From IMG/VR virus record IMGVR_UViG_3300040801_001888: a DNA stretch of 64,000 nt; one strand, given 5' to 3'. Numbering within the stretch: position 1 is the stretch's first letter; each line of letters starts with the position of its first letter. The position numbers and the translations under genes were made by a program. This stretch comes from a virus (Duplodnaviria > Heunggongvirae > Uroviricota > Caudoviricetes). Positions 27,414 to 63,455 of the stretch are shown one piece after another. Under the pieces are notes generated by a model. That model saw nothing but the letters and a program-made list of their open reading frames with translations. It did no database searches and was not told the origin of the DNA.

Positions 27414-27442
27414 ACTATACGATAGCTAGCGTGTCAGTGCAA
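27414..27442 (-). promoter_or_regulatory. sigma70-consensus promoter (TTGCAC-N17-TATAGT) with conserved leader
   Basis: Read on the minus strand: TTGCACTGACACGCTAGCTATCGTATAGT, followed by ...caacctgagaggactttctgATG. Confidence 0.55.
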
Positions 27443-27448
27443 GTGGTT

Positions 27449-28963
27449 TTACTGCTTAGTGCCAAACCCGCGTTCTTTCTGATATTCCTTCATCGCGTCG
27501 CGCAGTGACTTTTGGTCCGCGCTCTTGTTGTCGATCGCGCGACGCACCAGCAGGTCCACGGTATCGTGGGCGAGGATGCGGTGAATGATGACGCTCTTGG
27601 CGGTCTGCCCGGGGCGGCGCAGGCGCCCGTTGATCTGCAGGTACATCTCCAGGTCGTAGGTCAGCCCGAAATGCACCAGCTGGTGCCCGCCGAACTGGAG
27701 GTTCAATCCATGCCCGCTCGATTGCGGACTGGTGCATAGCCCGTCATACCCGCCCGCGTTCCAGTCCTCGATGATCTTCAGCGAGTCGATGTCACTGACG
27801 CCCGGACCCAGGTAGGCAACGCGAAACTTGCCCTTGTAGCGCTTCAGGATGCGCTCGGCGTCGGGGCGGAATGCGTAACTGATGATCACGCCACTGCCCC
27901 CGGACTCCTCCAGGATCTCGTCGAGCGCCTCCAGCTTGGCGTCGTGGACCGGGATCAGGGTCTCGCGCTCCTCGTGGTGGCGCACCACGCCGTTGGCTAC
28001 CTGGCGGCACTTCGCCGTCAGTGCCGCAGCGTTGAAGACCTCCAGTTCCATCTCGTCGAACTCGGCGAACATGTTCGCTTCTAGCTCGTCGTACTGCGCC
28101 CGCGCCTTCGGCGGAAGGTCGATCATGATGTCGTTGGTCACGTAGGGCGGCAGGTCCAGGTAGTCGTCCGAGGTAAGCGACACGGTGATGTCGGCGATCC
28201 GTTGCTCGATCTCCTCCTTGGCGCCAGGGCGTAGCCAGAGGCGGCGCTCGTACTGGTTTTCCTCGAAGTACTGGCGCTTGTAGTCGGTAATGTCGACACC
28301 GAGGCGCTTGCCGCCGTCGACCGCGAGGTACTGCCCGAACAGGTCGATGTAGCCATTGGGCGCCGGCGTGCCGGTGAGCCCGACGCGGCGCGGGGAATAA
28401 TCCAGCATGCAGACGCCGCCCGTCTTGGCGTGCCACGGGCCGATCCTGGCGCCCGTGGGCTTCTTGATCCGCGTGATCTCGTCAAAGATCACCATGTCGA
28501 AGGGCGGGTATCGTCCCTGGTGCAGGAACATCGTGTTGAGGTGGTTGTAGAGCCACGGCAGGGACTCGAAGTTGGTAACCCAGACGTCGTAGGGGCGGGT
28601 CAGCTCGCGCGCCAGCAGCTTCTTGTTCGAGCTGCGCAGGATGCACACCTTCAGGTGCTGGGTGTGCGCCCACTGCCGCGCCTCGATGTGCCAGACCGCC
28701 TCTGCCACCCGCCGAGGGGCGATCACCAGGACGCCTCGGATCATGCCCCAGGCTAAGAGGTCAGTAATAGCGGTTAGGCTGATGCTAGTCTTGCCCAAGG
28801 CTAAATCGACCTGCAGCATACTACCCGGATGCGCCACAATGAAGTCAGCCGCCTTAGTTTGGTACGGGCGCAGCATGGAGCGCGGACGGATTTCGCTATT
28901 CATACTGGTCAATAATGCCCTTGCCGTCCTCGACCGAGTCGCAGACGTAGACTGCCTGCTCAT
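27449..28963 (-). CDS. SNF2-family DNA helicase/translocase
   Basis: Helicase motif I (DLALGKT), motif II DEITRIK (DEAH-like), a C-terminal helicase domain with (Q)xxGRxxRxGQ (LQINGRLRRPGQT). Confidence 0.85.
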   Translation of the reverse strand: MSRQSTSATRSRTARALLTSMNSEIRPRSMLRPYQTKAADFIVAHPGSMLQVDLALGKTSISLTAITDLLAWGMIRGVLVIAPRRVAEAVWHIEARQWAHTQHLKVCILRSSNKKLLARELTRPYDVWVTNFESLPWLYNHLNTMFLHQGRYPPFDMVIFDEITRIKKPTGARIGPWHAKTGGVCMLDYSPRRVGLTGTPAPNGYIDLFGQYLAVDGGKRLGVDITDYKRQYFEENQYERRLWLRPGAKEEIEQRIADITVSLTSDDYLDLPPYVTNDIMIDLPPKARAQYDELEANMFAEFDEMELEVFNAAALTAKCRQVANGVVRHHEERETLIPVHDAKLEALDEILEESGGSGVIISYAFRPDAERILKRYKGKFRVAYLGPGVSDIDSLKIIEDWNAGGYDGLCTSPQSSGHGLNLQFGGHQLVHFGLTYDLEMYLQINGRLRRPGQTAKSVIIHRILAHDTVDLLVRRAIDNKSADQKSLRDAMKEYQKERGFGTKQ

Positions 28964-29216
28964 AGCCGCGCAGCTTGGCGATCTCGCGGTTCTGCGCGTC
29001 GGTCGGTTTTTCGCCTTCCCGCTTGAACTCGATGAAGAACACCACGCCGTCGGGGCTGACGAACACCCGGTCGGGCACGCTGCGGTGGTTGGGCGACTGG
29101 AACTTGTAGACCAGGAAGTCCTTCTTCCTGGCGTACATGCACACGGCTGCCTCGATGTAGCGCTCCAGGGGGCGCTTGTCCGGGGCGCGGAGCTTCTTTG
29201 GCGCGGGTAACGCCAT
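28896..29216 (-). CDS. VRR-NUC domain nuclease
   Basis: ...VFVSPDGVVFFIEFKREGEKPTDAQ... is the D...E.K core of the VRR-NUC PD-(D/E)XK family; commonly paired with SNF2 helicases in phage replication modules. Confidence 0.7.
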   Translation of the reverse strand: MALPAPKKLRAPDKRPLERYIEAAVCMYARKKDFLVYKFQSPNHRSVPDRVFVSPDGVVFFIEFKREGEKPTDAQNREIAKLRGYEQAVYVCDSVEDGKGIIDQYE

Positions 29217-29218
29217 GG

Positions 29219-29776
29219 TCAGAACCGCTTGCCGTGCTTGTGCGGGCGCTCGGCGTTGTAGGCGAGCTTGGCTTCGATCGCCTCGCCGACCTCGTAGACG
29301 AACCCAGCGGACATGTCCATGATGCGGATGACTGCGTCCGCCAACTCCTCCTCGACGCCGCTGAAGTCCGGGATATGCTCGCTCGGCGGATTGCCGTGAC
29401 GCATCGACTCCAGCGCCTCGGACAGCTCAGAGTGGATCAGCGCGATCATCTCTCCTTTGTTTCGCTCGTCGCCTTCGCCCCAGAACCCCTTCTCAATGTT
29501 GCCGCCGTAAATCACGGTCGACAGATCGTTCCACGCGTTCACAAACTGCCTGGCGACGCTCAGCTGCACGGGAGGGTTATCCGTGAGCGTAGAAGCGGGC
29601 AGGAACTCCTCCTCTTTATCGCCGGTCATCACGCGCAGGTGACCGACCAGCAGTCCGACATCCAGCAAGGCGTCTTCGAAGGACTTATCATCGCGGGCGA
29701 GCATCGCCTGGCTCATCCGGTAGATGTTCGCCGCGAGCTGGTCGACGGTGGACTTGGTTTCGTCGTTGAAGTTCAT
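29219..29776 (-). CDS. MazG-like nucleoside triphosphate pyrophosphohydrolase
   Basis: EEELADAVIRIMDM and ELSEALE motifs typical of MazG/HisE all-alpha NTP pyrophosphatases. Confidence 0.65.
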   Translation of the reverse strand: MNFNDETKSTVDQLAANIYRMSQAMLARDDKSFEDALLDVGLLVGHLRVMTGDKEEEFLPASTLTDNPPVQLSVARQFVNAWNDLSTVIYGGNIEKGFWGEGDERNKGEMIALIHSELSEALESMRHGNPPSEHIPDFSGVEEELADAVIRIMDMSAGFVYEVGEAIEAKLAYNAERPHKHGKRF

Positions 29777-30150
29777 ACAGGGTCTCCGTTTACTTTCAGT
29801 TGTTTTTCGATCTCTTGTACGAGCTTTTTGGCGATATCTTCAGCGATCATGCGATTAGCCACCTCTGTAGACTCGAAGTACAGATCGTTGAGTATCTCTA
29901 ACCTCGAATATACCGGCGATAGCCGAACTTCGATAGACGAGGGTCTAGTGGGGTGCGCCGATACTCTTATCTCAGGCGGATCCCATAAGGACGCGATTTG
30001 TTGCGCGCGTTCAATCGCGATCTTCCGCAGATCCTGGCGTAGGCTGTAGTTTTCACTCGCGATCTTCCGCAGCTCATGGCGTAGGCGGTAGTTTTCGTCG
30101 GTTAGCCCGCCTATTTGACTGAGCAAGTCTTGTTCTCTTTCGGGTGTCAT
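29773..30150 (-). CDS. hypothetical coiled-coil protein
   Basis: 125 aa with a repeated LRHELRKIASENYSLRQDLRKIAIERAQ segment. Confidence 0.35.
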   Translation of the reverse strand: MTPEREQDLLSQIGGLTDENYRLRHELRKIASENYSLRQDLRKIAIERAQQIASLWDPPEIRVSAHPTRPSSIEVRLSPVYSRLEILNDLYFESTEVANRMIAEDIAKKLVQEIEKQLKVNGDPV

Positions 30151-35824: not shown

Positions 35825-35857
35825 GTGGTGGTCCTCTCAGGTGTAGGTTCGCGTCGG

Positions 35858-36070
35858 CTACCGGTTGCCGCGATTATCGCGCGGGCGTTCCCGGTTCTCG
35901 TTTTCGGGCAGGGGGTCGCGGATGATCTTCACCGATTTGGCACAGGTGAAGTTGACTTGGCACCGAGACGCGGAGTGGAAGGCGATCTCGATCTCGATGT
36001 CTTCCTGACCGGGGATCTGCAGGTGAATCTTGTCACCCTTGCTTGCCATAATCTTTAACATTGTTTTACC
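35858..36070 (-). CDS. small beta-rich protein (weak CsrA- or AbrB/MazE-like pattern)
   Basis: MLKIMASKGDKIHLQIPGQEDIEIEIA... resembles the swapped-hairpin / CsrA N-terminal strand pattern, but the conservation is weak. Confidence 0.3.
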   Translation of the reverse strand, partial: GKTMLKIMASKGDKIHLQIPGQEDIEIEIAFHSASRCQVNFTCAKSVKIIRDPLPENENRERPRDNRGNR

Positions 36071-36176
36071 CTCTAAGGTGTGTCGTTTCGTAAGAAGCTG
36101 CAGCATCGCATATCGTAGCTACGGTGTCAACAGCTTTGATTGATCGATAGTGCCGTCCCTGGCACATACTTAGCCG

Positions 36177-36890
36177 TTAGAAGGCGTCCCAGGGCACATC
36201 AGCTGCCGCAGGAGGAGCAGCGGGCGGCGGCGGCGGGGCAGCCACGGCACCGGGCGGGGGCGGCGGGGGCGCAGCGGACATTCCCTCGAACGGGTTGGCG
36301 GCATCGTCCGCCTCGGCGATATCACCGAACGCGCCCTCAGCCGAGACGCGCGAATCGAAGCGCCCGACATCGCGCTGCGTCACGTAGACCGCGTTCAGCC
36401 CGACCGCGATGCCGCCGTCAGCGGGCGTGTTGAGGTAGGAGTACAGCGCGATCGACGCGTAGACCTCCATGCCGGAGAAGACCAGCGCCCGATCGGTATG
36501 TGGGTCGACGGGGATCGGTTTGCCCTTGATCGGACCCGCCTTGACGACGATCGGCGGCGAGGACGCGGCGCTCTTGGCGTTCAGCACAAAGCAGTCCTTG
36601 ATGTTCGCGTCTTGCGGGTACGCCCGGTTGGCGTCCTTCAGCGGGGTCTCGAACTTCATCGGCAAGACGCCGTCGGCCCATGCCTCATTCTTGACCTCCT
36701 CGATCAGGCGGTTGATCTCGGCAAGCAGTTGCGTATTGCTCGCCGGGATCACGATCCGCGCCGAGAACTTCGGATCACCGGACGGCTTCCCGTTGATCAC
36801 CGGCACGCGGGGCTCGAACAGCTCGGGGAAGCTCAAGCGGACCGGTGTGCTGGTGCGCTTGATTTGACGGTTTGCCTTCTTGTACGGCAT
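36177..36890 (-). CDS. DUF2815-like ssDNA-binding protein candidate
   Basis: N-terminus MPYKKANRQIKRTSTPVRLSFPELFEP; Pro/Ala-rich linker; acidic C-terminal tip DVPWDAF reminiscent of SSB C-terminal tails; adjacent to the DUF2800-like nuclease and polA. Confidence 0.55.
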   Translation of the reverse strand: MPYKKANRQIKRTSTPVRLSFPELFEPRVPVINGKPSGDPKFSARIVIPASNTQLLAEINRLIEEVKNEAWADGVLPMKFETPLKDANRAYPQDANIKDCFVLNAKSAASSPPIVVKAGPIKGKPIPVDPHTDRALVFSGMEVYASIALYSYLNTPADGGIAVGLNAVYVTQRDVGRFDSRVSAEGAFGDIAEADDAANPFEGMSAAPPPPPPGAVAAPPPPPAAPPAAADVPWDAF

Positions 36891-49371: not shown

Positions 49372-49381
49372 TGATCTAGTC

Positions 49382-54580: not shown

Positions 54581-54826
54581 TCAAAAGAAGGGTTTGATGC
54601 CCCTGGCATGACACTCGATGCAGTGCGCAATCTTCAAGTCGGTCTCGAAGTGCCGCACCGGCGCATCTCCACGTGCCATGCCGTGCACGTAGGTGAACAC
54701 GTTCCCACCGATCTCGTAGGTGTGCTTCACTTCTTTGCCGCTGGTGTCCGGCTGACGCGAGACTTTGGCCCCATGCGAGGTCAGCACGTGGATAACGTGT
54801 TTTTGTTCTGCTGTTCGTTTGCTCAT
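54581..54826 (-). CDS. hypothetical protein (Cys/His-containing)
   Basis: 81 aa, first gene after the promoter at 54,876-54,903; contains HCIECHARG. Confidence 0.35.
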   Translation of the reverse strand: MSKRTAEQKHVIHVLTSHGAKVSRQPDTSGKEVKHTYEIGGNVFTYVHGMARGDAPVRHFETDLKIAHCIECHARGIKPFF

Positions 54827-54875
54827 GTCGTTTTACCTCATGTTTGCCGCAGCGGTTGTTGCTGCGATGGAGAGT

Positions 54876-54903
54876 ATTATACAGGGCTTGCGTGTCAGTG
54901 CAA
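54876..54903 (-). promoter_or_regulatory. sigma70-consensus promoter (TTGCAC-N16-TATAAT)
   Basis: Identical core; located between the terminator at 54,936-54,972 and the gene starting at 54,826. Confidence 0.6.
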
Positions 54904-54935
54904 GCCTTTTTCGATACTATTTTTCTTCAGACAAA

Positions 54936-54972
54936 GAAAAAGCCCCCGCCAGTTTCCCGGTGGGGGCTTTCT
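54936..54972 (-). terminator. rho-independent terminator (leftward)
   Basis: GCCCCCGCC...GGTGGGGGC hairpin followed on the minus strand by TTTTTCTTTGTCT; sits between the gene ending at 55,000 and the next promoter. Confidence 0.55.
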
Positions 54973-54999
54973 ATCGGGTCGCGCTCTATCTAACGAGCG

Positions 55000-55419
55000 T
55001 TACGCCATGCCAGCAAACTGGGTTGGGGCCGGCGGCGGCGGGGGAGGAGGGGCTGCCTGGACTGCCGGGGCTGCCTGGGCGGCGGCTGCCTGGGCGGCTG
55101 CCTTGGCTGCCTGCTTCTCCTGCTCAGCCTTGGCGGCTTCGTCGGCATAGAACTGATCGGACAGTTGCCTGGCAGCCGGCGACAGCAGGCCCTCGGCTTC
55201 CAGCCAGCTGAGCAGCGGCAGGCCGATGGTTTCGACGCGTGTCATCTGAGCACGCACGGCGCGGTCGGACATGTCAGCCGGATACTCGACAGTCTGCAGG
55301 AACAGCTGAATAAGTCCGCCGTGGGAAGCTCGGGCCTCGTGGGCGATCATCGCGGACTGACTCAGGAACTCGGTGCCGTCGGCGGCAATCCAGACTTCGC
55401 GTTGTACTTTCTGACCCAT
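55000..55419 (-). CDS. hypothetical protein with an Ala/Pro-rich C-terminus
   Basis: 139 aa, followed by the terminator at 54,936-54,972. Confidence 0.35.
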   Translation of the reverse strand: MGQKVQREVWIAADGTEFLSQSAMIAHEARASHGGLIQLFLQTVEYPADMSDRAVRAQMTRVETIGLPLLSWLEAEGLLSPAARQLSDQFYADEAAKAEQEKQAAKAAAQAAAAQAAPAVQAAPPPPPPPAPTQFAGMA

Positions 55420-55666
55420 AGTGGGATTCTCCGTGGTGTGTTGTGGGGGTTTAGCGGGGTTAACGTGTCTGCACTAGCGCACACCGGTTAGTATACGGCG
55501 CGCCGTGAGATTGTCAAACCGTTGATTCTACTGGTACGCCGTTCCAGACCGACGAACGGCTGTCTGGTGCGCTTGTGCCGACTTATCTGGTGCGGCTATC
55601 CTGGAAAGTCCGGCTGCCGTTCGGGCGGTCCTTAACCACAATGAGAATCAGTTATGAAACTACCAA

Positions 55667-55710
55667 CAAAAAAAACCCCGGGGCAGGGTATGACTGCGCC
55701 GGGGCTTGGT
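55667..55710 (-). terminator. rho-independent terminator (leftward), upstream of the rightward primase gene
   Basis: CCCCGGGGC...GCGCCGGGG hairpin; on the minus strand it is followed by T8. Confidence 0.5.
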
Positions 55711-55771
55711 TCATCCATCAACCGAGGGTACTACGCTACAGGCACTCGAAACACGCTAGGAGACGTGCAAG

Positions 55772-58700
55772 GTGGATAATATAGACAACACATCACCCGC
55801 GCAACCCCCTTTTTCCTTTGTCCCGCCAAACGGTCCGATCTCGAATCGCTCCTTCCTTGAAACCATTGCCCGATTCGTGCCTGAGAGGACCGAGAGCGGG
55901 GAAGTTATCTATCTCTGGATGACATCCTTCTTCGGCGATCCTAACGACGCCGGGCGGACTGAGTGGCGCGGTCGACCTCTCTTCCGCCCGCTGAGCAAGA
56001 GCATCACCGAGATCGATGAACGGGCGGTGTCGAATCGGTTCTTCACCGTCTCGGCCTTCGCGCCGTCTGACCGGGGGTCCATGACCCGATCGCAGGCAAC
56101 GTTCCGCCTGTGGTTCGTGCTGGTGATCGATGATGTCGGCGACGGGCTTGGTGCGAAGGTGCCTTGGTCGAAGCTGCAGGGTCATAGTGAGCCGACCTAC
56201 GTGATGGAGACCTCGCCGGGTAACTTCCAGGTCGGGTACGTGCTGAGTGAGCCCGTGGAAGATCGGGCAACAGCGGACGCCGCGCTCGATGCGATGATCT
56301 ACCAGGGGCTCGGGCTCGAGTCAGACCCCGGGATGATCAGCGTGACGCGCAACGTGCGCCTGCAGGGCTACAACGGCAAGGCGAAGTATCGGGCGGATGA
56401 CATGGGGCTCGGTTTCACGCTGCCGCTGTCCGAGGCGCCACGCGTTCGGCTGGTCCACTGGCGTCCGGAGGTTTGCTACGCCTTGGATGAGATCGTTGAT
56501 GGCTTCGGGCTCGACCTGGAGAAGGCGCGGGTCGGGGCTGGTGCTGGCGCCGGGAACATGGGTAGACCGGGGATGGCTGTCGAGGACGATCCCTGGGTCG
56601 AGGTGTGGCACCGTGCCGGCTTTGTTAAGGGCGGCGTTGTGGACAAGGGGCATGGCGGGTCATGGCTGGAGGTGACATGTCCGCAGGTGGCGGAGCATAC
56701 GGGCGGGGTGGACGATGGGTCCGCCTACGCCATCGGCGGCGGCATGCGCTGCCATCACGGTCACTGCGAGACGCTGAACTGGCCCCAGGTGCGGGACATG
56801 TTCCTGCGGGGCGAGCACGGCGAGGATGCCCGGCGGGCGGCGATCGATGCCTACGCGGTCGAGTTGCTCGGTGGTGGCGGCGATGGTGGGCGCGAGGGTT
56901 TGGTTGCGCTCGAGAATGAGATCGAGCGGCTGAAGGACGAGCCGCTGGAGCGCCCTAAGATGGTCATTGCGGACCGGGGGGACGGTGGGGGCTCCGGGGA
57001 TGGTGGGGGCGGGCTCGCTGGTGCCGGCGGGGAGGGCGGGGTCGCGGGGATTGTGGTGGACGTGCCGCAGGCGTTCAGCTTCGAGACACTGCTCAAGCGA
57101 GCCTCAGAGTTCAAGCATCCCACCGGGGATAGTGCCGCCATAGCGGAGGCACACCGGGAGATCCAAGCCTTCCTGCGGGACGTGGCGATGTCCGGCTTTG
57201 GTCCCGGGCGTCTGACCAAGTCGGAAGACAAGGCGGTCATCGATGAGCTTGCGGACAAGCTCGGGGACGGCTTTGGCTCGCGGCAGCTTGCCAGCGACCT
57301 CAAGGCCGCGCGCGAGAAGATCCAGAACGAACTGGAACGGGCGCAGCGGGAGCAGCACCGGGCCGAGTTGCTGGCGGAGACCGAGGCCCTGGCGGCAGCG
57401 GGGGAAGTTGGCGCCTGGAAGCCGCGCGCGGTCGTCCAGGACACGGACCTGTTCAAGGATAACTCCGGCGATCCTGATAACCCTACCTACCTGCTCACCG
57501 CCAACAACACCAAGGTGATCCTGGACGCCATGCGGGTGTCGGTCTGGTTCGACTTGATGGTGAAGACGGAACGGTTCGACAACATCCCGGAAGGGACGTC
57601 GGCCATGGAGGTGCTGAACCATATCCACGACAACTGCATGCTCAACGAGCTGAACAAGGGCAAGGTCTCGCTCGGGCAGGTGCGGGAGAAGGTCCGGGCG
57701 ATCGGCGCCAGGAACGCCCGGCACCCGTTCGAGGAGTACCTCAAGCAGCTGCCCGCCTGGGATGGCGACGATCGCATGCCCAAGCTGTTCAACGCGATCA
57801 AGGTGCCCAGCGGCGACGACGCCGAGATCAAACGGCGGAACCTGATCCTGGAGCGGTGGCTGTTCAGCATCATCGGCGCGGCGCTGTTCCTTTATAAGGG
57901 CGTGCCAGGCGCTCAGCCGAGGCTGGTGCTGGCGCTGAGCGGCGGGCAGCACATCGGCAAGACTACCTGGGCGGCGAAGCTGTTCCGGGGGATCTTTCCC
58001 GGAAGCGACCAGTGCTATATGGGCGGCAGCCGGTTCGGCACGGACAAGGACTCGATCGAGAAGCTGATCAAGCACCTTGTCTGCGAGCTGGGCGAGCTGG
58101 AGACCAGCACGGGCAAGACCGGGGAGCTGAAGCAGTTCCTGTCCGCTGACGTCGATGAGTACCGCCGGCCTTACGATGCGGAGGTGTCGACGTTCTATCG
58201 GCGCTCGGTTTATCTCGGCACCGTCAACCCGGACGGGAATGGCTTCCTACCCGACCAGACGGGCAACAGCCGGTTCGGCGTGGTCAACGTCTCCAAGGTC
58301 GACCTCAACGCCATCGACGACCTGCTGGAAGGCGAGGGAGTCCATCAGCTGTGGTCGGAGATCCAGACCAAGTGCCTGGAGGCGTGGCGGGAGTGCCATG
58401 CCTACGTGGGCAAGGTGGTCCCGGGGAAGCCCTACGCGCCGTGGCTGCTGACTGCGGAGGAGATTGAGCTGATCGGAGTGGGTAATGAGGCGCATCGGGA
58501 GGTGCCGGAGATCGAGGAACTGCTCGACGACGTCTTCGACTGGGATGACGAGTTCTGGAGAAAGGCGTTAGACGACGACGATCATCTGCTGGCGCTACGG
58601 TTCAACCCGATGACGCGGGCGCAGGTCGTCGGGCATCTGCGCTCCTACACGACAGGGGCGCCGCGCGGGCTCAGCCTGATGCTGCGTAAGCGTATCGGTT

Positions 58701-58870
58701 GCGGAACGCCGGTACCGACCGAGGTGAAGGCATTATCCGGCATCGTTCACAAGGGGCGCCTTTGGCCGATGCCGCCGTTCACCGCGAACACGCAACGGGC
58801 TACAGCTGAGGAGATCGCGGCGGCGGTGACGCCTCCGGAGGACTCTCCCGGAAGCGTCAAACCGAACTAA
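55772..58870 (+). CDS. prim-pol / P4-type primase-helicase (D5-like NTPase)
   Basis: 1,032 aa; the N-terminal prim-pol-like domain includes the VLVIDDVGDG acidic motif; C-terminal Walker A LALSGGQHIGKTTWAAKLF typical of P4-alpha/D5 family helicases; the only large rightward gene inside the leftward early block. Confidence 0.8.
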   Translation: MDNIDNTSPAQPPFSFVPPNGPISNRSFLETIARFVPERTESGEVIYLWMTSFFGDPNDAGRTEWRGRPLFRPLSKSITEIDERAVSNRFFTVSAFAPSDRGSMTRSQATFRLWFVLVIDDVGDGLGAKVPWSKLQGHSEPTYVMETSPGNFQVGYVLSEPVEDRATADAALDAMIYQGLGLESDPGMISVTRNVRLQGYNGKAKYRADDMGLGFTLPLSEAPRVRLVHWRPEVCYALDEIVDGFGLDLEKARVGAGAGAGNMGRPGMAVEDDPWVEVWHRAGFVKGGVVDKGHGGSWLEVTCPQVAEHTGGVDDGSAYAIGGGMRCHHGHCETLNWPQVRDMFLRGEHGEDARRAAIDAYAVELLGGGGDGGREGLVALENEIERLKDEPLERPKMVIADRGDGGGSGDGGGGLAGAGGEGGVAGIVVDVPQAFSFETLLKRASEFKHPTGDSAAIAEAHREIQAFLRDVAMSGFGPGRLTKSEDKAVIDELADKLGDGFGSRQLASDLKAAREKIQNELERAQREQHRAELLAETEALAAAGEVGAWKPRAVVQDTDLFKDNSGDPDNPTYLLTANNTKVILDAMRVSVWFDLMVKTERFDNIPEGTSAMEVLNHIHDNCMLNELNKGKVSLGQVREKVRAIGARNARHPFEEYLKQLPAWDGDDRMPKLFNAIKVPSGDDAEIKRRNLILERWLFSIIGAALFLYKGVPGAQPRLVLALSGGQHIGKTTWAAKLFRGIFPGSDQCYMGGSRFGTDKDSIEKLIKHLVCELGELETSTGKTGELKQFLSADVDEYRRPYDAEVSTFYRRSVYLGTVNPDGNGFLPDQTGNSRFGVVNVSKVDLNAIDDLLEGEGVHQLWSEIQTKCLEAWRECHAYVGKVVPGKPYAPWLLTAEEIELIGVGNEAHREVPEIEELLDDVFDWDDEFWRKALDDDDHLLALRFNPMTRAQVVGHLRSYTTGAPRGLSLMLRKRIGCGTPVPTEVKALSGIVHKGRLWPMPPFTANTQRATAEEIAAAVTPPEDSPGSVKPN

Positions 58871-58909
58871 AAGCGTAGTGGCGACTTAGCCCCCTGAAAC
58901 GTAGGGACA

Positions 58910-58950
58910 GGCGAGACTTTCGGGGAGATCCCGGGTCTCGCCTTTTTTTT
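58910..58950 (+). terminator. rho-independent terminator of the primase-helicase gene
   Basis: GGCGAGAC...GTCTCGCC 8-bp stem (with inner GAGATCCCGGGTCTC palindrome) followed by T9. Confidence 0.7.
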
Positions 58951-58967
58951 TCAGCGCAATTTTTTTC

Positions 58968-59038
58968 TTGCGAAAGTTTTTTTGCGAAAGTTTTTTTTGC
59001 GAAAGTTTTTCGCGCTGTTTCTTTTGCGAAAATTTTTT
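58968..59038. repeat. four direct iterons TTGCGAAAGTTTTT, origin-like
   Basis: cttgcgaaagttttttt / ttgcgaaagttttttt / ttgcgaaagttttt / ttgcgaaaatttttt at 14-15-bp (then 27-bp) spacing immediately after the primase terminator. Confidence 0.6.
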
Positions 59039-59039
59039 G

Positions 59040-59300
59040 TACGAGAAAAAAAGCGTGAAGGCCCCGACGTTTTGGAACGCCATTTTCAAAACGTATGGTA
59101 AAACGTAGGGGAGAAAAATATGCCTATTTTCAATGCTTTAACTGTCTATAAACTACATAACTACGTTACTACGTTTAGTTTGGAAAACTCTATATAGGAA
59201 TTCTCTTTTTGGAATGTGTATGAATTAGGGCAAAAGTACACGTTCCCAAAATACAAACTGAAATGTATATAATGTTTGGGAGGGCCACGTAGGGCGTAGA
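59040..59300. other. AT-rich island (about 30-35% GC against ~60% background) with repeated AACGTAGGG / ACTACGTT motifs
   Basis: Visibly A/T-dominated sequence with no convincing ORF; motifs aaacgtaggga, aaacgtatgg, aaacgtagggg, cacgtagggcgtagaaacgttgg. Confidence 0.55.
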
Positions 59301-59377
59301 AACGTTGGTTCAGCCGCCTTGCGGCGGTCTGTTCCGGGAGGGCGCGATTTGTACACGAAAGCGCGGTGCTTGACAAC

Positions 59378-59416
59378 GAAAAGCCCCGACCGCATCGCTG
59401 CGGTCGGGGCTTGGTT
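59378..59416 (-). terminator. hairpin terminator downstream of the MTase-nuclease cassette
   Basis: GCCCCGACCGCATCGCTGCGGTCGGGGC perfect 11-bp stem; minus-strand tail TTTTCGTT. Confidence 0.5.
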
Positions 59417-59423
59417 TGGTGCG

Positions 59424-59924
59424 TTAGATTGTGGACATGTACGCGCGGAGGGATTTTGTTGATGTCAGGACGCGGACCTCGCGTTTCGTGGTGTGGCACC
59501 ACGTTAACGCGCCATCGCGCACGCCATCCCCCAGAACTACCAAAACAGGCTCCATTGTCGGCGCGATGGCTTCCAGTGACAGTAGCCAGAACGGGAGCTT
59601 CTCATCAACGCTTCCCGATGTCCCCTGGTACTTCATTTCGATCAGCACTGGGCGGTTCCCCGCCTTGAACGGCGCGACGACGAAGTCCGCCTTGAACGGC
59701 GCTTTGTAGATCGATTGGTATGCTGGGATTTGCGTGTAGAAGAAACCCGGCTTGACTAGTAGCACCGGGTCAGCGCCGGCGTTGCACGCCAGAACCACGC
59801 TGGTGCGGTCTTTTCCCTCCGCCTCTTGGTACCCTCGGGCAAGCAGGTGGTCGTGGATGATCTGCTCGCCGAGGCGCCCTGATGTGTTGGCATGCACGCC
59901 TCCGTCTGGTTTTTGGCGGCTCAT
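59424..59924 (-). CDS. small PD-(D/E)XK-like nuclease candidate
   Basis: ...KADFVVAPFKAGNRPVLIEMKYQ... fits the D-x(n)-E-x-K core; 4-nt overlap with the upstream MTase gene. Confidence 0.45.
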   Translation of the reverse strand: MSRQKPDGGVHANTSGRLGEQIIHDHLLARGYQEAEGKDRTSVVLACNAGADPVLLVKPGFFYTQIPAYQSIYKAPFKADFVVAPFKAGNRPVLIEMKYQGTSGSVDEKLPFWLLSLEAIAPTMEPVLVVLGDGVRDGALTWCHTTKREVRVLTSTKSLRAYMSTI

Positions 59925-60574
59925 CGGTTGGCGCTCCTGTCGCGCTTCTGGATTGAGTCCACGTAACCCATGAATGGGAAGTGGGCTTTGCCCCGCGTGC
60001 CTGTTGCACCCTCAAACGCTTCGCGGGCGCGTCGTTGCGAGTCCCTTCTGTCAAGGCTTCTGTCGAAGAACAGTATCGATTGGCCCCTCGTGTTGCCCGA
60101 GACCTTTTTGCCGTCGACGTTCTCGAAAGCGATGCGTCCGAAGGGCATACAAACCGCAGTCAGGTACTCACAGTCGCGCAAGGATTTGTACCAAACCGTT
60201 TCCGTAGCGTTGTTGACTAGGACCACACCACGTTCGAAGTGTCCTGATTCCAGGTGTGCTACGAACGCCTGGATGGCGCCGTGCACCACGCCCCGCCCAT
60301 AAGGAGGGTTCATAAAGACGGTCCGCGCATGCGGCCATGGGGTGCGGATGGCGTCGTCGTCCTTGGTGTAGAACTGTTCAGCGTGAACGCCCCCTGGACG
60401 ATTGTTGGCGGCGATGCTGGAGAACGGGTCGAAGTCAATCGACCCGCGCTTCCTATCCAGCGCCCACCGAACGCGGGCGATGATGTCGGCTGGCGTGAAC
60501 CAGGAGTCGCTGTCCCGATTTTCGCCAGGCTTAGCGCCGATGTAGGCGAGTTTGTTTTTGTCTGCGATGTTCAA
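59921..60574 (-). CDS. phage-type DNA N6-adenine methyltransferase (T1/Dam PF05869-like), TTG start
   Basis: SWFTP and NPPYG (motif IV) in a 217-aa protein; RBS aagagg 8 nt upstream of the TTG. Confidence 0.7.
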   Translation of the reverse strand: MNIADKNKLAYIGAKPGENRDSDSWFTPADIIARVRWALDRKRGSIDFDPFSSIAANNRPGGVHAEQFYTKDDDAIRTPWPHARTVFMNPPYGRGVVHGAIQAFVAHLESGHFERGVVLVNNATETVWYKSLRDCEYLTAVCMPFGRIAFENVDGKKVSGNTRGQSILFFDRSLDRRDSQRRAREAFEGATGTRGKAHFPFMGYVDSIQKRDRSANR

Positions 60575-60597
60575 TGGCTAACCTCTTGAAAAGTAAA

Positions 60598-60632
60598 GTT
60601 CACATTTGTGAACAGACACAAACTGATGTGTC
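60598..60632. promoter_or_regulatory. two adjacent palindromic operator-like sites upstream of the TTG start of the phage Dam gene
   Basis: GTTCACATTTGTGAAC (perfect 7-2-7) and GACACAaactgatGTGTC (6-6-6). Confidence 0.45.
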
Positions 60633-60671
60633 GAGACAAGCATAGTGTAACGAAGACAAAGAACGCAAGCA

Positions 60672-60708
60672 GCAAAAAAGCCCCGATCGCATCGCTGCGA
60701 TCGGGGCT
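60672..60708 (-). terminator. rho-independent terminator (leftward) upstream of the MTase-nuclease cassette
   Basis: GCCCCGATCGCATCGCTGCGATCGGGGC (near-identical to the 59,383-59,410 hairpin) followed on the minus strand by T6; a second hairpin (CCCCGGTGC...GCGACCGGGG) lies at 60,731-60,760. Confidence 0.55.
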
Positions 60709-60793
60709 TGATCTGGTGCTACAATGCGAAACCCCGGTGCACTACGAATGCGACCGGGGCTTCTCCCTCAACACCTCACAGACAGGTATCAAG

Positions 60794-61459
60794 ATGCTTC
60801 CCATCTTAGCAGACACGTCAGTCTCCATGAACAGCCGCGAGATCGCGGAGCTGGTCGATTCTCGCCATGACAGCGTTAAGCGTGCTGTTGAGCGCCTCGC
60901 CGAAAGAGGAGTTATCACCCAGCCACCGACGGTGGATGGGATGAAATCAGCAAACGGCGTGATCGAAAAGCTCTACGTCTTCGACCAGGCGCACAAACGC
61001 GATTCCATCGTGGTGGTGGCACAGCTAAGCCCTGAGTTCACCGGCAAGCTGGTGGATCGCTGGCAAGAGTTAGAGGCGGGGGCTAAGCCGGTCGCCCTCT
61101 CAACCGGCGCTTTTCTGCTCCAGCAGGCGCAGATGCTCTACGAGATGGAACAGCGCCAGGCAGCAGCTGAGCAGCGCCAGGCGGCGACCGAGCAGCAGGT
61201 TGCGAAGATCACGGAGCGGGTCCAGCAGACGGAGACGGCGGTCGACTACTTCAGCGTGATTGGTTACCACCGTTACGTGCGGCGTGACGGTGATCTGACG
61301 CTGCCCCAGGCACAAGCCATGGGTAAGACGGCGACCGGATATTGCCGGGACCACGGCGTGCCTATGGCCGAGACCCCGGACCCCCGCTTCGGACGGGTCA
61401 ATACCTATCCGAAGTGGGTTCTTGACCACCTGTTCGGACCTGAGCAGTCCGCGCTGTAG
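60794..61459 (+). CDS. Rha-family phage regulatory protein
   Basis: MNSREIAELVDSRHDSVKRAVERL matches the conserved Rha N-terminal motif; start chosen downstream of the tandem minus-strand terminators that lie in the annotated 5' extension. Confidence 0.5.
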   Translation: MLPILADTSVSMNSREIAELVDSRHDSVKRAVERLAERGVITQPPTVDGMKSANGVIEKLYVFDQAHKRDSIVVVAQLSPEFTGKLVDRWQELEAGAKPVALSTGAFLLQQAQMLYEMEQRQAAAEQRQAATEQQVAKITERVQQTETAVDYFSVIGYHRYVRRDGDLTLPQAQAMGKTATGYCRDHGVPMAETPDPRFGRVNTYPKWVLDHLFGPEQSAL

Positions 61460-61461
61460 CC

Positions 61462-61488
61462 ACAAAAAAAGCCCCGCATCGCGGGGCT
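61462..61488 (-). terminator. rho-independent terminator of the 61,517-62,101 gene
   Basis: GCCCCGCGATGCGGGGC hairpin + T7 on the minus strand. Confidence 0.6.
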
Positions 61489-61516
61489 CAGCCATCCCTC
61501 CCTCGGACCCTTCCGG

Positions 61517-62101
61517 CTAGATCCTGGTCGGCATCAGCAGGCTGTGGATGTCGGCGCAGCCCTTGCCGCACCACTCGACCTTGATCGGGTCACTCGCGTC
61601 CCTCGCGAAGTGCAAGATCGACGTGGCGTTCAGTGCCTCGGCAACGCCGGACAGCTTGGTGAAGTCAAGCCCGACCCGGTCGATGGCGCCAGCTCGGTGC
61701 ACCTGCATGGCGATTCGGCGCCAGTCGGGGAACGCATGCACTCCCCTATCCTCCACGCGCGGCAGGACCACTTGTCGCGCCTTGCGGTTGCTCAGGATGT
61801 CAGCCTTGCCCGTCGCGGTGTCCAGGCGCACCAAGACATTGTGCGGGTCTACACGGGGCGCCAGGTTGATCGGCGCAAAGTTGGTCGACTCGTGCGCGGC
61901 GTCACTTAAGTCGACAATGCCGCTGATGAATACCTCTGCCCAGGTCATCTGGGAGCCGTCGGTGGCGACGAGCGTAACCTTGCCGTCTGCGGCCGTAGTC
62001 GTGTCGACGTGCAGGTTGTGCAGGTACGGGCGCACATCGCCCGGGGCGGCGCAAGCGGCGAACAGGGCACGCAGGATGTGGTAGTGGACTTCAATGATCA
62101 T
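61517..62101 (-). CDS. small protein with sliding-clamp (DnaN N-terminal domain)-like pattern
   Basis: MIIEVHYHILRALFAACAAPGDVRPYLHNLHVD...DGKVTLVATDG loosely parallels the beta-clamp domain I pattern; weak evidence. Confidence 0.35.
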   Translation of the reverse strand: MIIEVHYHILRALFAACAAPGDVRPYLHNLHVDTTTAADGKVTLVATDGSQMTWAEVFISGIVDLSDAAHESTNFAPINLAPRVDPHNVLVRLDTATGKADILSNRKARQVVLPRVEDRGVHAFPDWRRIAMQVHRAGAIDRVGLDFTKLSGVAEALNATSILHFARDASDPIKVEWCGKGCADIHSLLMPTRI

Positions 62102-62130
62102 TTGAAAAGCCTCTCAGGTTAAGTGGGCAG

Positions 62131-62305: not shown

Positions 62306-62488
62306 TTAGAGGGGGCCGAGCAGCTCGCCCTCTTCGTCGAAGCACTCGACGACCCAGCGCGGCGGGTTCAGGTTCGAGCGGCGGACCTCGAAGGCCCAGC
62401 CGTCGGCGTCGCGGTTGTTGGCATCGGCGCAGGCTTGCGCTTCATTCCGGTCGGTGAACTGCGTTGCGGGAATGTTGTCGATCGTCAT
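62306..62488 (-). CDS. hypothetical small protein
   Basis: 60 aa, directly downstream of the promoter at 62,524-62,551. Confidence 0.3.
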   Translation of the reverse strand: MTIDNIPATQFTDRNEAQACADANNRDADGWAFEVRRSNLNPPRWVVECFDEEGELLGPL

Positions 62489-62523
62489 CTAAGTATCTCC
62501 GGGCTGGCTAGACTGTGAAAACG

Positions 62524-62551
62524 ATTATACAGGGCTAGCGTGTCAATGCAA
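62524..62551 (-). promoter_or_regulatory. sigma70-consensus promoter (TTGCAT-N16-TATAAT)
   Basis: Minus-strand TTGCATTGACACGCTAGCCCTGTATAAT upstream of the 62,488 start. Confidence 0.55.
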
Positions 62552-62763
62552 GCACTTTTTCGATAGATTCAAGAAATGCGTAACGACTGCAACACCGACA
62601 AGCCACAGAAGCACCCCTGGCACCCGATCGCCGATGTGGCGTGCGGCTACGATGAACGGATGACGGCAGCGGGCTGTTCCGGTTGCCATCGGCAGCGCGA
62701 GGAGTCGGCACTTGAGCAGTTGCAGCGGCTGGACGCCCGGCACACCGTCGATGGAATCGTGAA

Positions 62764-63102
62764 GTGACATCGAGATGGCAGGCCCAGCGCTCCCAGAAGC
62801 GCGTTGACCCGTTCTACCGGTCGAGTTCATGGGCACGACTGCGCAACGCGGTCCTGCGGGCGCAGGGGCGCCGCTGTAGCGTCTGCGGGGCGACTGAAGG
62901 GCAGATGCACGTCGACCACATCATCAGCCGCAAGACGCGCCCAGACCTCGCCCTAGCGGCGGACAATTGCGTGGTGCTCTGCCACGCGTGCCATTCGCGC
63001 AAGACGGCGCGTCATGATGGTGGCTTCGGGAACAGGCAGCGGGCTGGACCGCTCGGATGTGATGCCTCCGGCGAGCCGGAAGGAGAACGGGAAGGATGGT
63101 GA
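62764..63102 (+). CDS. HNH endonuclease
   Basis: CSVCG...HVDHIISRK...NCVVLCHACHSRK is a canonical HNH ββα-Me motif with two CxxC pairs. Confidence 0.6.
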   Translation: MTSRWQAQRSQKRVDPFYRSSSWARLRNAVLRAQGRRCSVCGATEGQMHVDHIISRKTRPDLALAADNCVVLCHACHSRKTARHDGGFGNRQRAGPLGCDASGEPEGEREGW

Positions 63103-63111
63103 GGCAGCCGG

Positions 63112-63375
63112 TCAGGCGTTAACGCGTCGATAGTTGCGTATCTTACTCGGTCCTTTTGCGAAGACTTCCCGGATATTCAACGGACGACCCACCTTGGTCA
63201 TAGCATCCAGGAAAAGGGCATAGTCCCGATCTTCCTCTAAATAGACGAAACGTCCGTTTTCGTAGGAGAAAGAGGAAATATTCTCGTAAATTCCGAGGCT
63301 CAAAACCAGCGTTTTAGAGACTCTGAGCCAACCGTGCGATGGATCAGAGAAAGCAGTGCAATTGTAAGTCTTCAT
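63112..63375 (-). CDS. hypothetical protein (first leftward early gene)
   Basis: 87 aa, immediately downstream of the rightmost consensus promoter. Confidence 0.35.
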   Translation of the reverse strand: MKTYNCTAFSDPSHGWLRVSKTLVLSLGIYENISSFSYENGRFVYLEEDRDYALFLDAMTKVGRPLNIREVFAKGPSKIRNYRRVNA

Positions 63376-63426
63376 GGGGATACCTCTCAGGATTTGGCTG
63401 TTGTTGCGAACTGCGACGATGGATGC

Positions 63427-63455
63427 ATTATGCGGGAGTGTAGCTAGCGTGTCAA
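63427..63455 (-). promoter_or_regulatory. sigma70-like promoter (TTGACA-N17-CATAAT), rightmost early promoter
   Basis: Minus-strand TTGACACGCTAGCTACACTCCCGCATAATG upstream of the 63,375 start. Confidence 0.5.

Follow-up and report, generated by a model that had tools for sequence, protein, structure and literature searches.

Repeated probable sigma70-type promoters in the leftward early region of a metagenomic tailed phage resemble recombinogenic PeSL-type cassettes

Nine promoter-like elements are distributed along the leftward region of a tailed phage recovered from a metagenome. We judge, with a probability of roughly 70%, that they are strong host-sigma70-type early/middle promoters packaged as recombinogenic regulatory cassettes of the PeSL (promoter-early stem-loop) type. 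The window, that is, the whole 64,000-nt stretch analyzed, belongs to a novel siphovirus with a Casjensviridae-like replication module; ~12 kb of the phage genome lies outside it. Our reading draws on sequence anatomy, non-random occurrence, positions relative to genes, folding, and the mosaic pattern seen in the relative L039. From these features, we infer that the elements act as promoters, where and when transcription starts from them, what the hairpins do, and how recombination proceeds.

The preliminary description of this DNA reported at least nine near-identical promoters of the form TTG..-N16/17-TATAAT. The family is real: nine members exist, all on the minus strand, each just upstream of a gene. 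Neither near identity nor TATAAT in every member holds. A profile built from the nine elements and scanned across the whole 64 kb, on either strand, returned exactly these nine and no further matches. Because the nine self-matches arise by construction, the informative part is the absence of extra ones. The exact pattern TTGMMY-N16-TATAAT is found six times (P62524, P54876, P51928, P51046, P48970, and P46385) versus 0.01 expected from shuffles, and of the window's 10 TATAAT hexamers, seven are accounted for by family members. The remaining members are variants. Specifically, the -10 reported as TATAAT at 27,414 is TATAGT; that reported at 63,427 is CATAAT, paired with TTGACA across a 17-nt spacer; and the element placed at 41,020 was 10 nt off, its TATAAT lying at 41035-41030 with a -35 of TTGCGT and an inverted spacer box. 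Similarity is high among P54876, P51928, P51046, P48970, and P46385 (74-88% over 60 nt) but lower for the other four (53-77%). The nine cassettes are:

63373..63480, minus strand: P63427, ~570 nt from the contig terminus; A/T tract with ATCGA; -35 TTGACA (63455-63450); 17-nt spacer with box GACACGCTAGC; -10 CATAAT (63432-63427); leader CATCGTCGCAG...CCTGAGAGG; ATG 63375 of an 87-aa ORFan; hairpin and T-run (63514-63488) just 5'.
62486..62575, minus strand: P62524; ATCGAAAAAG tract; -35 TTGCAT (62551-62546); box GACACGCTAGC; -10 TATAAT (62529-62524); divergent 28-nt leader with SD GGAG; ATG 62488 (60 aa), then a RusA-like gene (62101-61517).
54824..54975, minus strand: P54876, A-type; intrinsic terminator (54975-54937); ATCGAAAAAGG tract; -35 TTGCAC (54903-54898) within the palindrome GGCTTGC-N8-GCAAGCC; -10 TATAAT (54881-54876); leader with 5' hairpin UCGCAGC..GCUGCGG (z -3.1); ATG 54826.
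51882..51993, minus strand: P51928, A-type; AAAATAAATCGAAGAAAGG tract; -35 (51955-51950); -10 (51933-51928); 9-bp stem-loop across the -35 and spacer; unstructured leader AUCGCAGCAACGAACGCAACCUAAGAGGAAC; ATG 51884.
50999..51100, minus strand: P51046, A-type; -35 (51073-51068); -10 (51051-51046); leader as in P51928; ATG 51001 (65 aa).
48901..49023, minus strand: P48970, B-type; A9 tract; -35 TTGACT (48997-48992); box GACACGCTAGC; -10 (48975-48970); leader of 59 nt, its hairpin AUGGUC..GACCAU located at the predicted +1 and followed by a CA-rich spacer and CCTGAGAGGA; ATG 48903 of a Dam-type methyltransferase.
46319..46438, minus strand: P46385, B-type, a direct repeat of P48970 (89% over 111 nt); -35 (46412-46407); -10 (46390-46385); same hairpin leader as P48970; ATG 46321.
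40988..41078, minus strand: P41030; -35 TTGCGT (41057-41052); box inverted (41049-41059 on the plus strand), GCTTGC kept at -36..-31; -10 TATAAT (41035-41030); leader AUCGCAGCGACGCAACCUAAGAGGAC; ATG 40990 (147 aa).
27380..27448, minus strand: P27414, directly after the SNF2 helicase stop; -35 TTGCAC (27441-27436); box GACACGCTAGC; -10 TATAGT (27419-27414); short leader with CCTGAGAGGA; ATG 27382 of a 59-aa predicted membrane protein.

All nine elements stand 28-59 nt 5' of minus-strand start codons, and the genes they precede are leftward replication, nucleotide-metabolism, and ORFan genes. Similarity between cassettes ends at the start codon; the proteins encoded beyond are unrelated to each other. 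Each composite unit spans ~90-150 nt and runs from an A-rich UP-like tract through the -35, the spacer box, the -10, a predicted start at CA, and a CA-rich leader to the RBS. The A-rich tracts 5' of the -35 carry ATCGAA, spacers are 16-17 nt, and the -10 is perfect or near-perfect. The hexamers are the best-conserved positions of the family. In A-type copies, the -35, TTGCAC, matches three of six consensus positions, and the spacer is 16 nt rather than 17. On this anatomy, the elements carry everything that sequence can show of strong sigma70-type promoters.

Conservation that extends past 35 nt and takes in the spacer and initially transcribed bases is typical of phage-polymerase promoters, and those of the T7 or N4 type are long and nearly invariant. 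The repeats could, on that ground, serve a phage-encoded RNA polymerase or sigma factor rather than host sigma70. The ~12 kb outside the window could encode a polymerase or transcription factor, and one GenBank record calls a homolog of the 687-aa protein at 43546-45609 a "putative DNA-directed RNA polymerase." We nonetheless regard this idea as very improbable. The elements possess canonical -35/-10 hexamers, sigma70 spacing, and UP-like tracts. For the 687-aa protein, Pfam, NCBIfam, and PDB gave no match, and almost every record labels it "hypothetical." A scan of the window ORFs, except some small ones, against Pfam, PHROGs, and NCBIfam yielded no RNA polymerase gene, and no scanned window protein has a polymerase or sigma domain. 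Finally, an early promoter must act before any phage protein exists, unless a virion polymerase is injected. Reliance on host RNA polymerase, first proposed for the phage at large, can be claimed for the leftward region only, because of the ~12 kb lying outside the window. The rightward late region (1-20,000 scanned) has no promoters comparable to the family, and its weak sigma70-like sites number two versus 6.1 expected. Two promoter-like sites outside the family are:

55490..55517, minus strand: TTGACA-16-TATACT, 5' of a 139-aa gene (55419-55000); conserved in L039.
40502..40531, minus strand: TTGACA-18-TTAAAT, 5' of an operon that begins with a helicase gene and includes the PolA gene; -10 within a 9-bp inverted repeat, ATTCGCAGG..CCTGCGAAT; hexamers and inverted repeat conserved in L039.

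Sigma70 recognition gives no account of the invariant spacer box. Each element contains the 11-mer GACACGYWAGC once, nine in all versus 0.11 expected, and the window has no other copy. The GCTTGC...GCAAGC inverted repeat, initially ascribed to the -35/spacer segment of the whole family, is perfect in the three A-type copies only (stem -17.2 kcal/mol, z -4.2) and absent from B-type copies. On the plus strand, the P51046 palindrome and A-tract resemble a hairpin followed by a T-run (51055-51076).

One interpretation makes an operator the main feature of these promoters. Here, the box together with the GCTTGC-N8-GCAAGC dyad would be the site of a dimeric regulator, phage-encoded or host, that switches the whole set off or on at the early-to-late transition, and similarity between copies would reflect selection for that site and not cassette spread. 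Consistent with this notion, no part of the family is more invariant than the box, which is restricted to the nine promoters and, in L039, to three orthologous cassettes; both A-type L039 copies have the same G-to-T box change; and the P41030 box is inverted with GCTTGC kept, as expected of a symmetric site. Likewise, L009/L040, a distant relative, possesses its own set of repeated promoters with GC-rich dyads in their spacers, and an early protein (52232-53368) possesses an LmbU/ParB-like DNA-binding region. We consider an operator unlikely to be the main feature, however, given that just three of the nine copies have a strong dyad and the B-type has none, that L039 retains the box although the LmbU-like gene is absent, that family scans of window proteins identified no repressor-type HTH protein, and that PeSL stem-loops occupy the same positions with no known binding protein. 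An operator would, moreover, add to the promoter-cassette reading without excluding it.

Hairpins lie upstream of three of the nine cassettes: P54876, which has the sole canonical terminator; P63427, with a hairpin and T-rich run; and P46385, whose hairpin lacks a U-tract. A terminator directly before a promoter is borne out at 54,937-54,975, which adjoins P54876 (-27.8 kcal/mol). The second proposed example, 61,469-61,489, is a real terminator, but it sits at a convergent gene junction with no family promoter after it.

The leader is shared by some members rather than all. Its short form is exact in P51928 and P51046, shortened in P41030, and divergent in P54876; its long form is exact in P48970 and P46385; and P62524, P27414, and P63427 have leaders of other kinds. 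The AGAGGA RBS noted at leader ends is present but not promoter-specific. It is part of an extended RBS, CCTRAGAGG (full cassette consensus CCTRAGAGGA), found at 14 leftward genes, seven promoter-proximal and seven operon-internal, and at no rightward late gene. The operon-internal copies, given by the larger coordinate of each 9-mer, are:

35833..62118, minus strand: CCTRAGAGG at 62118, 53385, 51588, 50170, 45624, 40473, and 35841.

This distribution, and the recurrence of CCTRAGAGG in the relatives L039 and L040, would suit a leader that functions in RNA, either as a processing site or because a phage translational repressor or endoribonuclease, comparable to T4 RegA/RegB, targets it. Such a factor would act at the shared CCTRAGAGGA and at the 5' hairpin, and the likeness to promoters would be secondary. 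Also compatible is that the module of hairpin, CA-rich spacer, and SD occurs inside operons and, promoter-less, in L039c. Such a role as the primary one strikes us as improbable, since it leaves unexplained why the -35, spacer, -10, and UP-like parts are conserved, all of them upstream of any resulting transcript. Short leaders have positive folding z-scores and less structure than shuffled controls, nothing in Rfam matches, and family scans detected no RegA/RegB-like or other RNA-binding protein. The suggestion that the UTR is a structured riboregulator is thus not upheld. A hairpin is present in three leaders only (P48970, P46385, and P54876), beginning 0-1 nt from the predicted +1; its counterpart in L039c is retained via paired insertions. 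5'-Terminal stem-loops, such as that of the ompA 5' UTR, stabilize mRNA. The arrangement here is similar, with a hairpin 0-2 nt from the 5' end, then an unstructured segment and SD; the differences are that the 5' end is predicted and that the same hairpin module also occupies an internal, promoter-less position in L039.

The promoter-cassette reading gains its recombinational component from L039, a close relative whose blocks in common with the window are 87-90% identical in nucleotides. Specifically, homology at P54876 stops at the -10, after which L039 has a B-type leader and a different gene, a chimeric cassette. At P51928, the cassette forms a 91% island flanked by genes without detectable homology, and is the only clearly conserved stretch there. 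Absent from L039 is the Dam module, the 2.6 kb separating direct repeats P48970 and P46385; in its place is a single promoter-less remnant joining the P48970 upstream flank to the P46385 downstream gene. A 5.5-kb homology block starts at the upstream edge of P41030 (41078), whose L039 orthologue has TACAGT as its -10. In this comparison with one close relative, five of nine breakpoints fall in cassettes, which occupy 2.9% of the region (p = 2e-6), an enrichment that becomes marginal if breakpoints are assumed to be intergenic only (p about 0.05-0.11). The comparison with L039 shows gene modules swapped or lost at cassette copies. The coincidence of cassettes with mosaic breakpoints, missed in the preliminary description, places the elements with PeSL-type regulatory cassettes and not with plain promoters.

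Dispersed direct repeats before unrelated genes, one of which has lost its promoter core in L039 while the downstream gene is retained, could instead be selfish or neutral (MITE-like elements or duplication remnants), with no regulatory role and only an incidental likeness to promoters. We find this scarcely credible: every copy is intergenic, points the same way as the genes, and stops exactly at the SD and start codon; the best-conserved hexamers are kept in L039 orthologues where flanks diverge; and neither terminal inverted repeats nor target duplications nor a transposase accompany the repeats.

Clustered strong early sigma70 promoters are familiar from lytic coliphages, including T7 A1/A2/A3 and the T5 early promoters. 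There, as here, several co-oriented, consensus-like host promoters lie near the first-entering genome end and serve early genes before phage takeover. By contrast, the present copies occur at one per gene module across 36 kb and have spacer, leader, and RBS in common, a pattern that favors copy spread or gene conversion over independent convergence on a consensus.

The closest parallel is the PeSL cassette of the T4-like myoviruses RB49/phi1, PST, and nt-1, comprising a sigma70-like promoter, AT-rich tract, stem-loop, SD, and start codon; ~100 bp are conserved, the stem-loop may sit between or over the promoter boxes, and the cassettes are associated with indels (Arbiol et al. 2010, PMC2839356; Comeau et al. 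2014, PMC4122927). Both systems have ~100-nt composite repeats with an AT-rich tract, near-consensus sigma70 promoter, SD, and start codon; a stem-loop that may be upstream of or over the -35/spacer; many copies before unrelated small early genes; and indel, replacement, and chimera junctions between close relatives inside cassettes. They differ in that ours reside in a siphovirus with a Casjensviridae-like replication module rather than a T4-like myovirus, number nine rather than dozens, have the stem-loop in three copies only and a canonical upstream terminator in one, and add a conserved leader (5' hairpin or CA-rich) and an extended RBS also found away from promoters. Putative mobile promoters, often carried by mobile elements, have been surveyed in bacterial chromosomes (Matus-Garcia et al. 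2012, "Promoter propagation in prokaryotes," PMC3488235). These likewise place homologous promoter regions before non-homologous genes in one genome; our case concerns a phage early region, and inter-copy recombination is visible in a relative.

The notion is that host RNA polymerase holoenzyme would fire at every copy shortly after entry of the right genome end, driving leftward early/middle genes for ORFans, DNA methylase, replication, and nucleotide metabolism. With few terminators between units, transcription would accumulate along the leftward region. Unstructured leaders may promote efficient ribosome loading, 5' hairpins probably shield mRNA from 5'-end-dependent decay, and, in three copies, the spacer box and -35 region would form a stem-loop. 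As long direct repeats before unrelated genes, the cassettes would also provide portable homology, so that modules could be inserted, deleted, or exchanged together with their own expression signals. Family scans indicate that the genome encodes a DUF2800 nuclease and a gp2.5/Enc34-type annealing protein, which could be able to use short homologies. Cassette-borne gene shuffling has already been described for T4-like phages; the present case, if our reading is correct, is one from a tailed metagenome phage.

Nine predicted promoter cassettes lie on the minus strand of the window, each intergenic and co-oriented with the gene downstream. They are named by the end coordinate of the -10 hexamer: P63427, P62524, P54876, P51928, P51046, P48970, P46385, P41030, and P27414. 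Six carry the exact pattern TTGMMY-N16-TATAAT, for which 0.01 occurrences are expected. A seventh pairs TATAAT at 41035-41030 with the -35 hexamer TTGCGT, and two further elements have -10 variants, TATAGT (27419-27414) and CATAAT (63432-63427). Across the family, the -10 is TATAAT in seven copies and TATAGT and CATAAT in one each; the -35 is TTGACA or TTGACT in three copies and TTGCAC, TTGCAT, or TTGCGT in six; and the spacer is 16 nt long in eight copies and 17 nt in one. A preliminary description of this DNA proposed such a family, and its existence is borne out: these are nine real, non-random elements. Several details need amendment. TATAAT had been ascribed to all nine copies and holds for seven, and the element put at 41,020 has its TATAAT at the position stated here. 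The copies had also been called near-identical; aligned over 60 nt, five are 74-88% alike in pairwise comparison, but the other four only 53-77%. Likewise, the leaders quoted as shared are each exact in two copies but not in the rest.

Three copies group as A-type (P54876, P51928, and P51046, with P62524 close), two as B-type (P48970 and P46385), and three are outliers. Among the cassettes are repeats of 111 nt (89% alike) and 75 nt (96%). When a profile HMM made from the nine elements was run on both strands of the window, it returned those nine alone; its matches to them hold by construction, so the informative result is the absence of a tenth copy.

On the minus strand, the cassette runs from an A-rich tract (often ATCGAA) through GCTTG at -36, the -35 (TTGCAC or TTGACT), the 16-nt spacer, TATAAT, and ACTCTCC to an A at the expected start, followed by a leader, CCTRAGAGGA, and an ATG 5-8 nt on. 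The most invariant feature is a spacer 11-mer, GACACGYWAGC (the box), found nine times in the window, once per element, versus 0.11 expected; at P41030 its orientation is inverted. Eight of the nine copies have the A 6-9 nt after the -10: in P63427 it occupies position 7, and in the other seven position 8, where a C precedes it in six copies and a T in P41030. Positions 6-9 of P27414 contain no purine. The predicted 5' UTR is 28-59 nt long in eight copies.

Each element has a -35 near TTGACA and a -10 near TATAAT, 16 or 17 nt apart and upstream of a gene. Judged by sequence, the nine fit strong host sigma70 promoters for the leftward early and middle genes, and the earlier assignment of strong sigma70-type promoters to the leftward early region was right in outline. 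A scan of positions 1-20,000 in the late region found no sigma70-like sites comparable to the family. Sigma54 and ECF sigma readings of the box were dropped, the consensus being unmatched on inspection. Two sigma70-like sites stand outside the family:

55517-55490, minus strand: TTGACA-16-TATACT, preceding a 139-aa gene
40531-40502, minus strand: TTGACA-18-TTAAAT, preceding the helicase-polymerase operon

The second site has its -10 in the loop formed by a perfect inverted repeat of 9 bp, ATTCGCAGG..CCTGCGAAT. A close relative, L039 (ENA ERZ25039514 contig_13338), has a helicase 92% identical to that of the window and shares DNA blocks at 87-90%; at its positions 8296-8330 the promoter-like hexamers and the inverted repeat are kept, and part of the spacer differs. 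The site looks like an operator-controlled middle promoter.

The window has a G+C content of ~60%, and its leftward block, from ~55.4 kb down to 26 kb, encodes an SNF2 helicase, a ThyA-like enzyme, a family A DNA polymerase, a DUF2800 nuclease, a gp2.5/Enc34-type single-strand-binding protein, an SF1 helicase, a Dam-type methylase, and many ORFans. Rightward genes include the following:

8801-9589, plus strand: amidase, tail/lysis block
14583-17876, plus strand: tape-measure gene, tail/lysis block
19109-25213, plus strand: J-like tail protein, tail/lysis block
55772-58870, plus strand: primase/VapE gene

The tape-measure and J-like tail genes, together with a PolA at most 34% identical to those of the Casjensviridae, mark the genome as that of a siphovirus. 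Comparison of 16 kb with 50,697 phage records by megablast revealed no DNA-level similarity. JGI metagenome contigs of up to 76,246 nt contain the exact primase sequence. Identity to the window is 99.98-100% in the sibling contigs L034-L038, which add only the position of the terminus: several independent siblings stop within 14 nt of position 64,000. Thus, the window's right edge coincides with a terminus of either the genome or the assembly, and, given the 76,246-nt contig, the window does not cover ~12 kb of the genome.

Those ~12 kb leave room for a phage-encoded polymerase that would drive the elements. We regard this as unlikely: the elements carry sigma70 architecture rather than that of a T7- or N4-type single-subunit polymerase promoter, and no RNAP domain was found in the scanned window proteins. 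One candidate was considered, a 687-aa protein (43546-45609, minus strand) that matches PHROG 1735 (E 1e-187) and has homologues at 38-39% identity in Ackermannviridae, N4-like Stenotrophomonas and Xanthomonas phages, and Bacillus and Caulobacter phages. One GenBank record names a homologue "putative DNA-directed RNA polymerase." We rejected the candidate on the lack of any Pfam, NCBIfam, or PDB match; its gene is absent from L039.

Other features of the genome merit mention. Just upstream of the first promoter on the minus-strand reading, the terminal region 63480-64000 contains AAWYCTACC six times in one orientation (the window as a whole has seven occurrences versus 0.7 expected). It also contains a 91-nt tandem repeat (63643-63807), three repeats of 57 nt, a pair of 34-nt direct repeats at the extreme end, and a unit, CTACCGCAACCTCTTGAGGGTAAAGG, similar to the cassette leader and ribosome-binding site (RBS). 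This region may represent a genome end or a packaging site, a set of iterons, or cassettes that have decayed. HNH endonuclease ORFs lie between the first two cassettes on the opposite strand (62764-63102, plus) and directly downstream of the polymerase gene (32845-33489, minus). A 1337-aa tail-fibre-like protein (3666-7679, plus) contains long runs of collagen-like GXY repeats, and several segments of 150-300 nt are duplicated within its gene. Two nearly identical terminator hairpins with 14-bp stems (59381-59412 and 60678-60709; 91% over 44 nt) bracket a leftward methylase/PD-(D/E)XK nuclease gene pair (60574-59424), which forms a putative small insulated module beside an anti-repressor-like gene (60608-61459, plus). 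Finally, a ThyA-like enzyme with an N-terminal extension (31609-32586), a dNMP kinase (30453-31022), two DNA methyltransferases (48097-48903 and 59921-60574), and a weak Mom-like match (46521-47222) together suggest that the phage DNA may be modified. Modification, if present, would also change how AT-rich promoter elements are read.

The -35/spacer segment had been described as a hairpin-capable repeat, and this holds for the three A-type copies, in which a 9-bp stem spans the -35 region and the box (-17.2 kcal/mol, z -4.2), but not for the B-type copies, which show no stem over the core. Upstream hairpins occur at P54876, where the hairpin is a canonical terminator, and at P63427 and P46385. 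Terminators had been said to sit directly before the next promoter: that at 54937-54975 immediately precedes P54876, but that at 61469-61489 marks a convergent junction with no family promoter after it. An antisense terminator, formed by the A-type palindrome and A-tract read on the plus strand, was discarded because the nearby rightward transcription unit that would need one is absent.

The proposal that the conserved UTR is an RNA regulatory element fares poorly. Short leaders fold worse than shuffled sequence (z +0.7 to +1.2), and Rfam gave no match at gathering score; relaxing to E <= 1 yielded only a chance match on a terminator. What would count toward a riboswitch, attenuator, or nut/put-like RNA amounts to simple 5' hairpins in three leaders: in P48970, P46385, and P54876 the leader folds into a hairpin (-12 to -13 kcal/mol) whose first base lies 0-1 nt from the predicted +1. 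The hairpin evidence is qualitative, since in a covariation test MAFFT misaligns the 3' arm of the four sequences. From these folds, the conserved leader is not a structured regulatory RNA but an unstructured CA-rich region, probably for ribosome loading, preceded in some copies by a 5'-terminal hairpin of a kind known to protect mRNA ends. The predicted +1 of the B-type leaders coincides with the A of an AUG, and the frame that it opens closes at TGA or TAA within CCTRAGAGG, as also in the distant relatives L009 and L003. A leaderless mini-ORF was nonetheless rejected as a conserved feature: at one cassette-related locus of L039 (L039a) the frame passes through the motif, and at another, internal and promoter-less (L039c), the AUG is in frame with the gene.

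The leader ends in an extended RBS. CCTRAGAGG occurs 15 times versus 0.76 expected, and 14 of the 15 sites coincide with the RBS of a leftward gene, seven within operons; the motif is not tied to promoters. None is at a rightward late gene. The 14 minus-strand CCTRAGAGG(A) sites span 27399-63391, and the motif also occurs in L039 and L040. By its distribution, CCTRAGAGG(A) is a putative RBS specific to leftward early and middle genes. Small GC-rich hairpins often lie 20-40 nt upstream of the operon-internal sites, for example before the start codons at 50154, 51572, and 43066.

More distant phages retain the plan, not the sequence. PolA relatives (L001-L009 and L029; 48-62% identity) are too distant for promoter alignment; gene order is kept, but element sequences are not. 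One relative, L009/L040, has its own family of repeated cassettes, analogous to those of the window, that share TTGACACG, a GC-rich spacer dyad, TATGAT, CCATGGTC at the predicted start, a 5' hairpin, a CA-rich spacer, and a Shine-Dalgarno sequence (SD). Another, L004, has its own class-specific RBS, CAACTGGAGAA. Thus, the architecture is a recurrent one among these phages. L003 repeats an intergenic module (1-31, 128-158, and 1310-1340) with the hairpin CATGGGCCTGCGGGTCCATGG before the RBS. In L040, complete promoter cassettes with TTGACACG, the spacer dyad, TATGAT, and CCATGGTC lie at 6878-6970, 7627-7739, and 9038-9207; their CCATGG at the predicted start is also that of the B-type leader in the window. 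Pattern searches were unproductive: the promoter DNA pattern returned no viral, no genome, and one metagenome match (L005), which is unrelated, and a second pattern, TTGACACG..TATRAT..CATGG, returned 19 viral contigs, all unrelated.

Comparison with L039 reveals mosaicism at the cassettes. At P54876, pairwise alignment shows homology running from the primase through the terminator, UP-like tract, -35, and spacer to the -10, where it stops; L039 continues with a B-type hairpin leader and an unrelated gene. Both arms of the upstream terminator have changed, yet its pairing is maintained. From A-tract to ATG, the P51928 cassette shows 91% identity; the genes on either side lack a clear counterpart, with weak tblastx similarity in ~60 nt of the upstream flank. 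A single promoter-less remnant in L039 joins the upstream flank of P48970 to the leader and gene of P46385, and the 2.6-kb Dam-methylase module between these direct repeats in the window is absent there. A 5.5-kb homology block begins at the upstream edge of the P41030 cassette; the preceding 4.5 kb of the window are missing from L039. Block ends fall inside cassettes in five of nine cases, with cassettes making up 2.9% of the region (p = 2e-6; p ~0.05 under a stricter null of intergenic DNA only), in statistics drawn from one relative. The qualitative patterns (chimera, island, and deletion between direct repeats) weigh more than the enrichment p. Promoter hexamers are preserved in the L039 orthologues, and the box has the same single G-to-T change in both A-type copies of L039, a hint of concerted evolution or co-adaptation.

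The composite repeated units and the mosaic pattern match a known system, the promoter-early stem-loop (PeSL) cassettes of T4-like phages. PeSLs have the same parts, including stem-loops between or over promoter boxes, and recombination between copies deletes, inserts, or exchanges the flanked ORFans (PMC2839356, PMC4122927). Like PeSLs, the window cassettes are composites of an AT-rich tract, a strong sigma70-like promoter, an SD, and a start codon with ~100 bp conserved, set in a plastic region of small ORFans and unrelated genes. Similarity between copies stops at the start codon, and most genes directly downstream have no PHROG or Pfam match. As with PeSLs, indel and replacement junctions between close relatives fall inside cassettes (P54876, P51928, P48970/P46385, and P41030). 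There are differences. PeSLs were defined in T4-like myoviruses, in which copy recombination yields mini-circles, whereas the window phage is a siphovirus outside that group, with far fewer copies. The PeSL stem-loop lies upstream of, between, or over the boxes in a terminator or attenuator role; here, candidate stems occur in some copies only, and none of this type was found at the B-type core, P41030, or P27414. By sequence comparison, the cassettes are best classified as putative PeSL-like early regulatory cassettes, of a kind already known, in a new siphovirus lineage. Recombination between cassettes could be supplied by the pair of nuclease and annealing protein that the phage itself encodes.

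Sigma70 contacts do not account for the box, and it is possible that a regulator binds there. The LmbU/ParB-like early protein encoded at 52232-53368 (minus; 378 aa) is one candidate: in its N-terminal region it is similar to DNA-binding regulators of the LmbU family (ParB-like), with an E of 3e-19 that falls short of the curated cutoff, and L040 encodes a ParB_N protein at the equivalent place. The protein is absent from L039, however, where the box is kept. Its gene contains six copies of an 18-nt in-frame tandem repeat (52852-52983). We also entertain, at roughly one chance in ten, the idea that the box and a GCTTGC-N8-GCAAGC dyad (inverted at P41030), rather than being a passive relic, form the site of a candidate phage protein that co-regulates early promoters and targets recombination to the cassettes. 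These would then mediate integron-like, site-directed module exchange in a siphovirus rather than serve as substrates of general homologous recombination.

The cassette findings leave current understanding in place. The nine elements offer a ready map of transcription units in an uncultured phage and a set of compact, probably strong, insulated expression cassettes, and the class-specific RBS and 5' hairpins provide testable handles on preferential early gene expression. If the PeSL-like reading is true, T4-like myoviruses would not be alone in having promoter-plus-RBS cassettes that double as recombination linkers; such cassettes would also shape the early region in an unrelated lineage of siphoviruses that only metagenomes have revealed, and would lend backing to the old "linker sequence" model of modular phage evolution.
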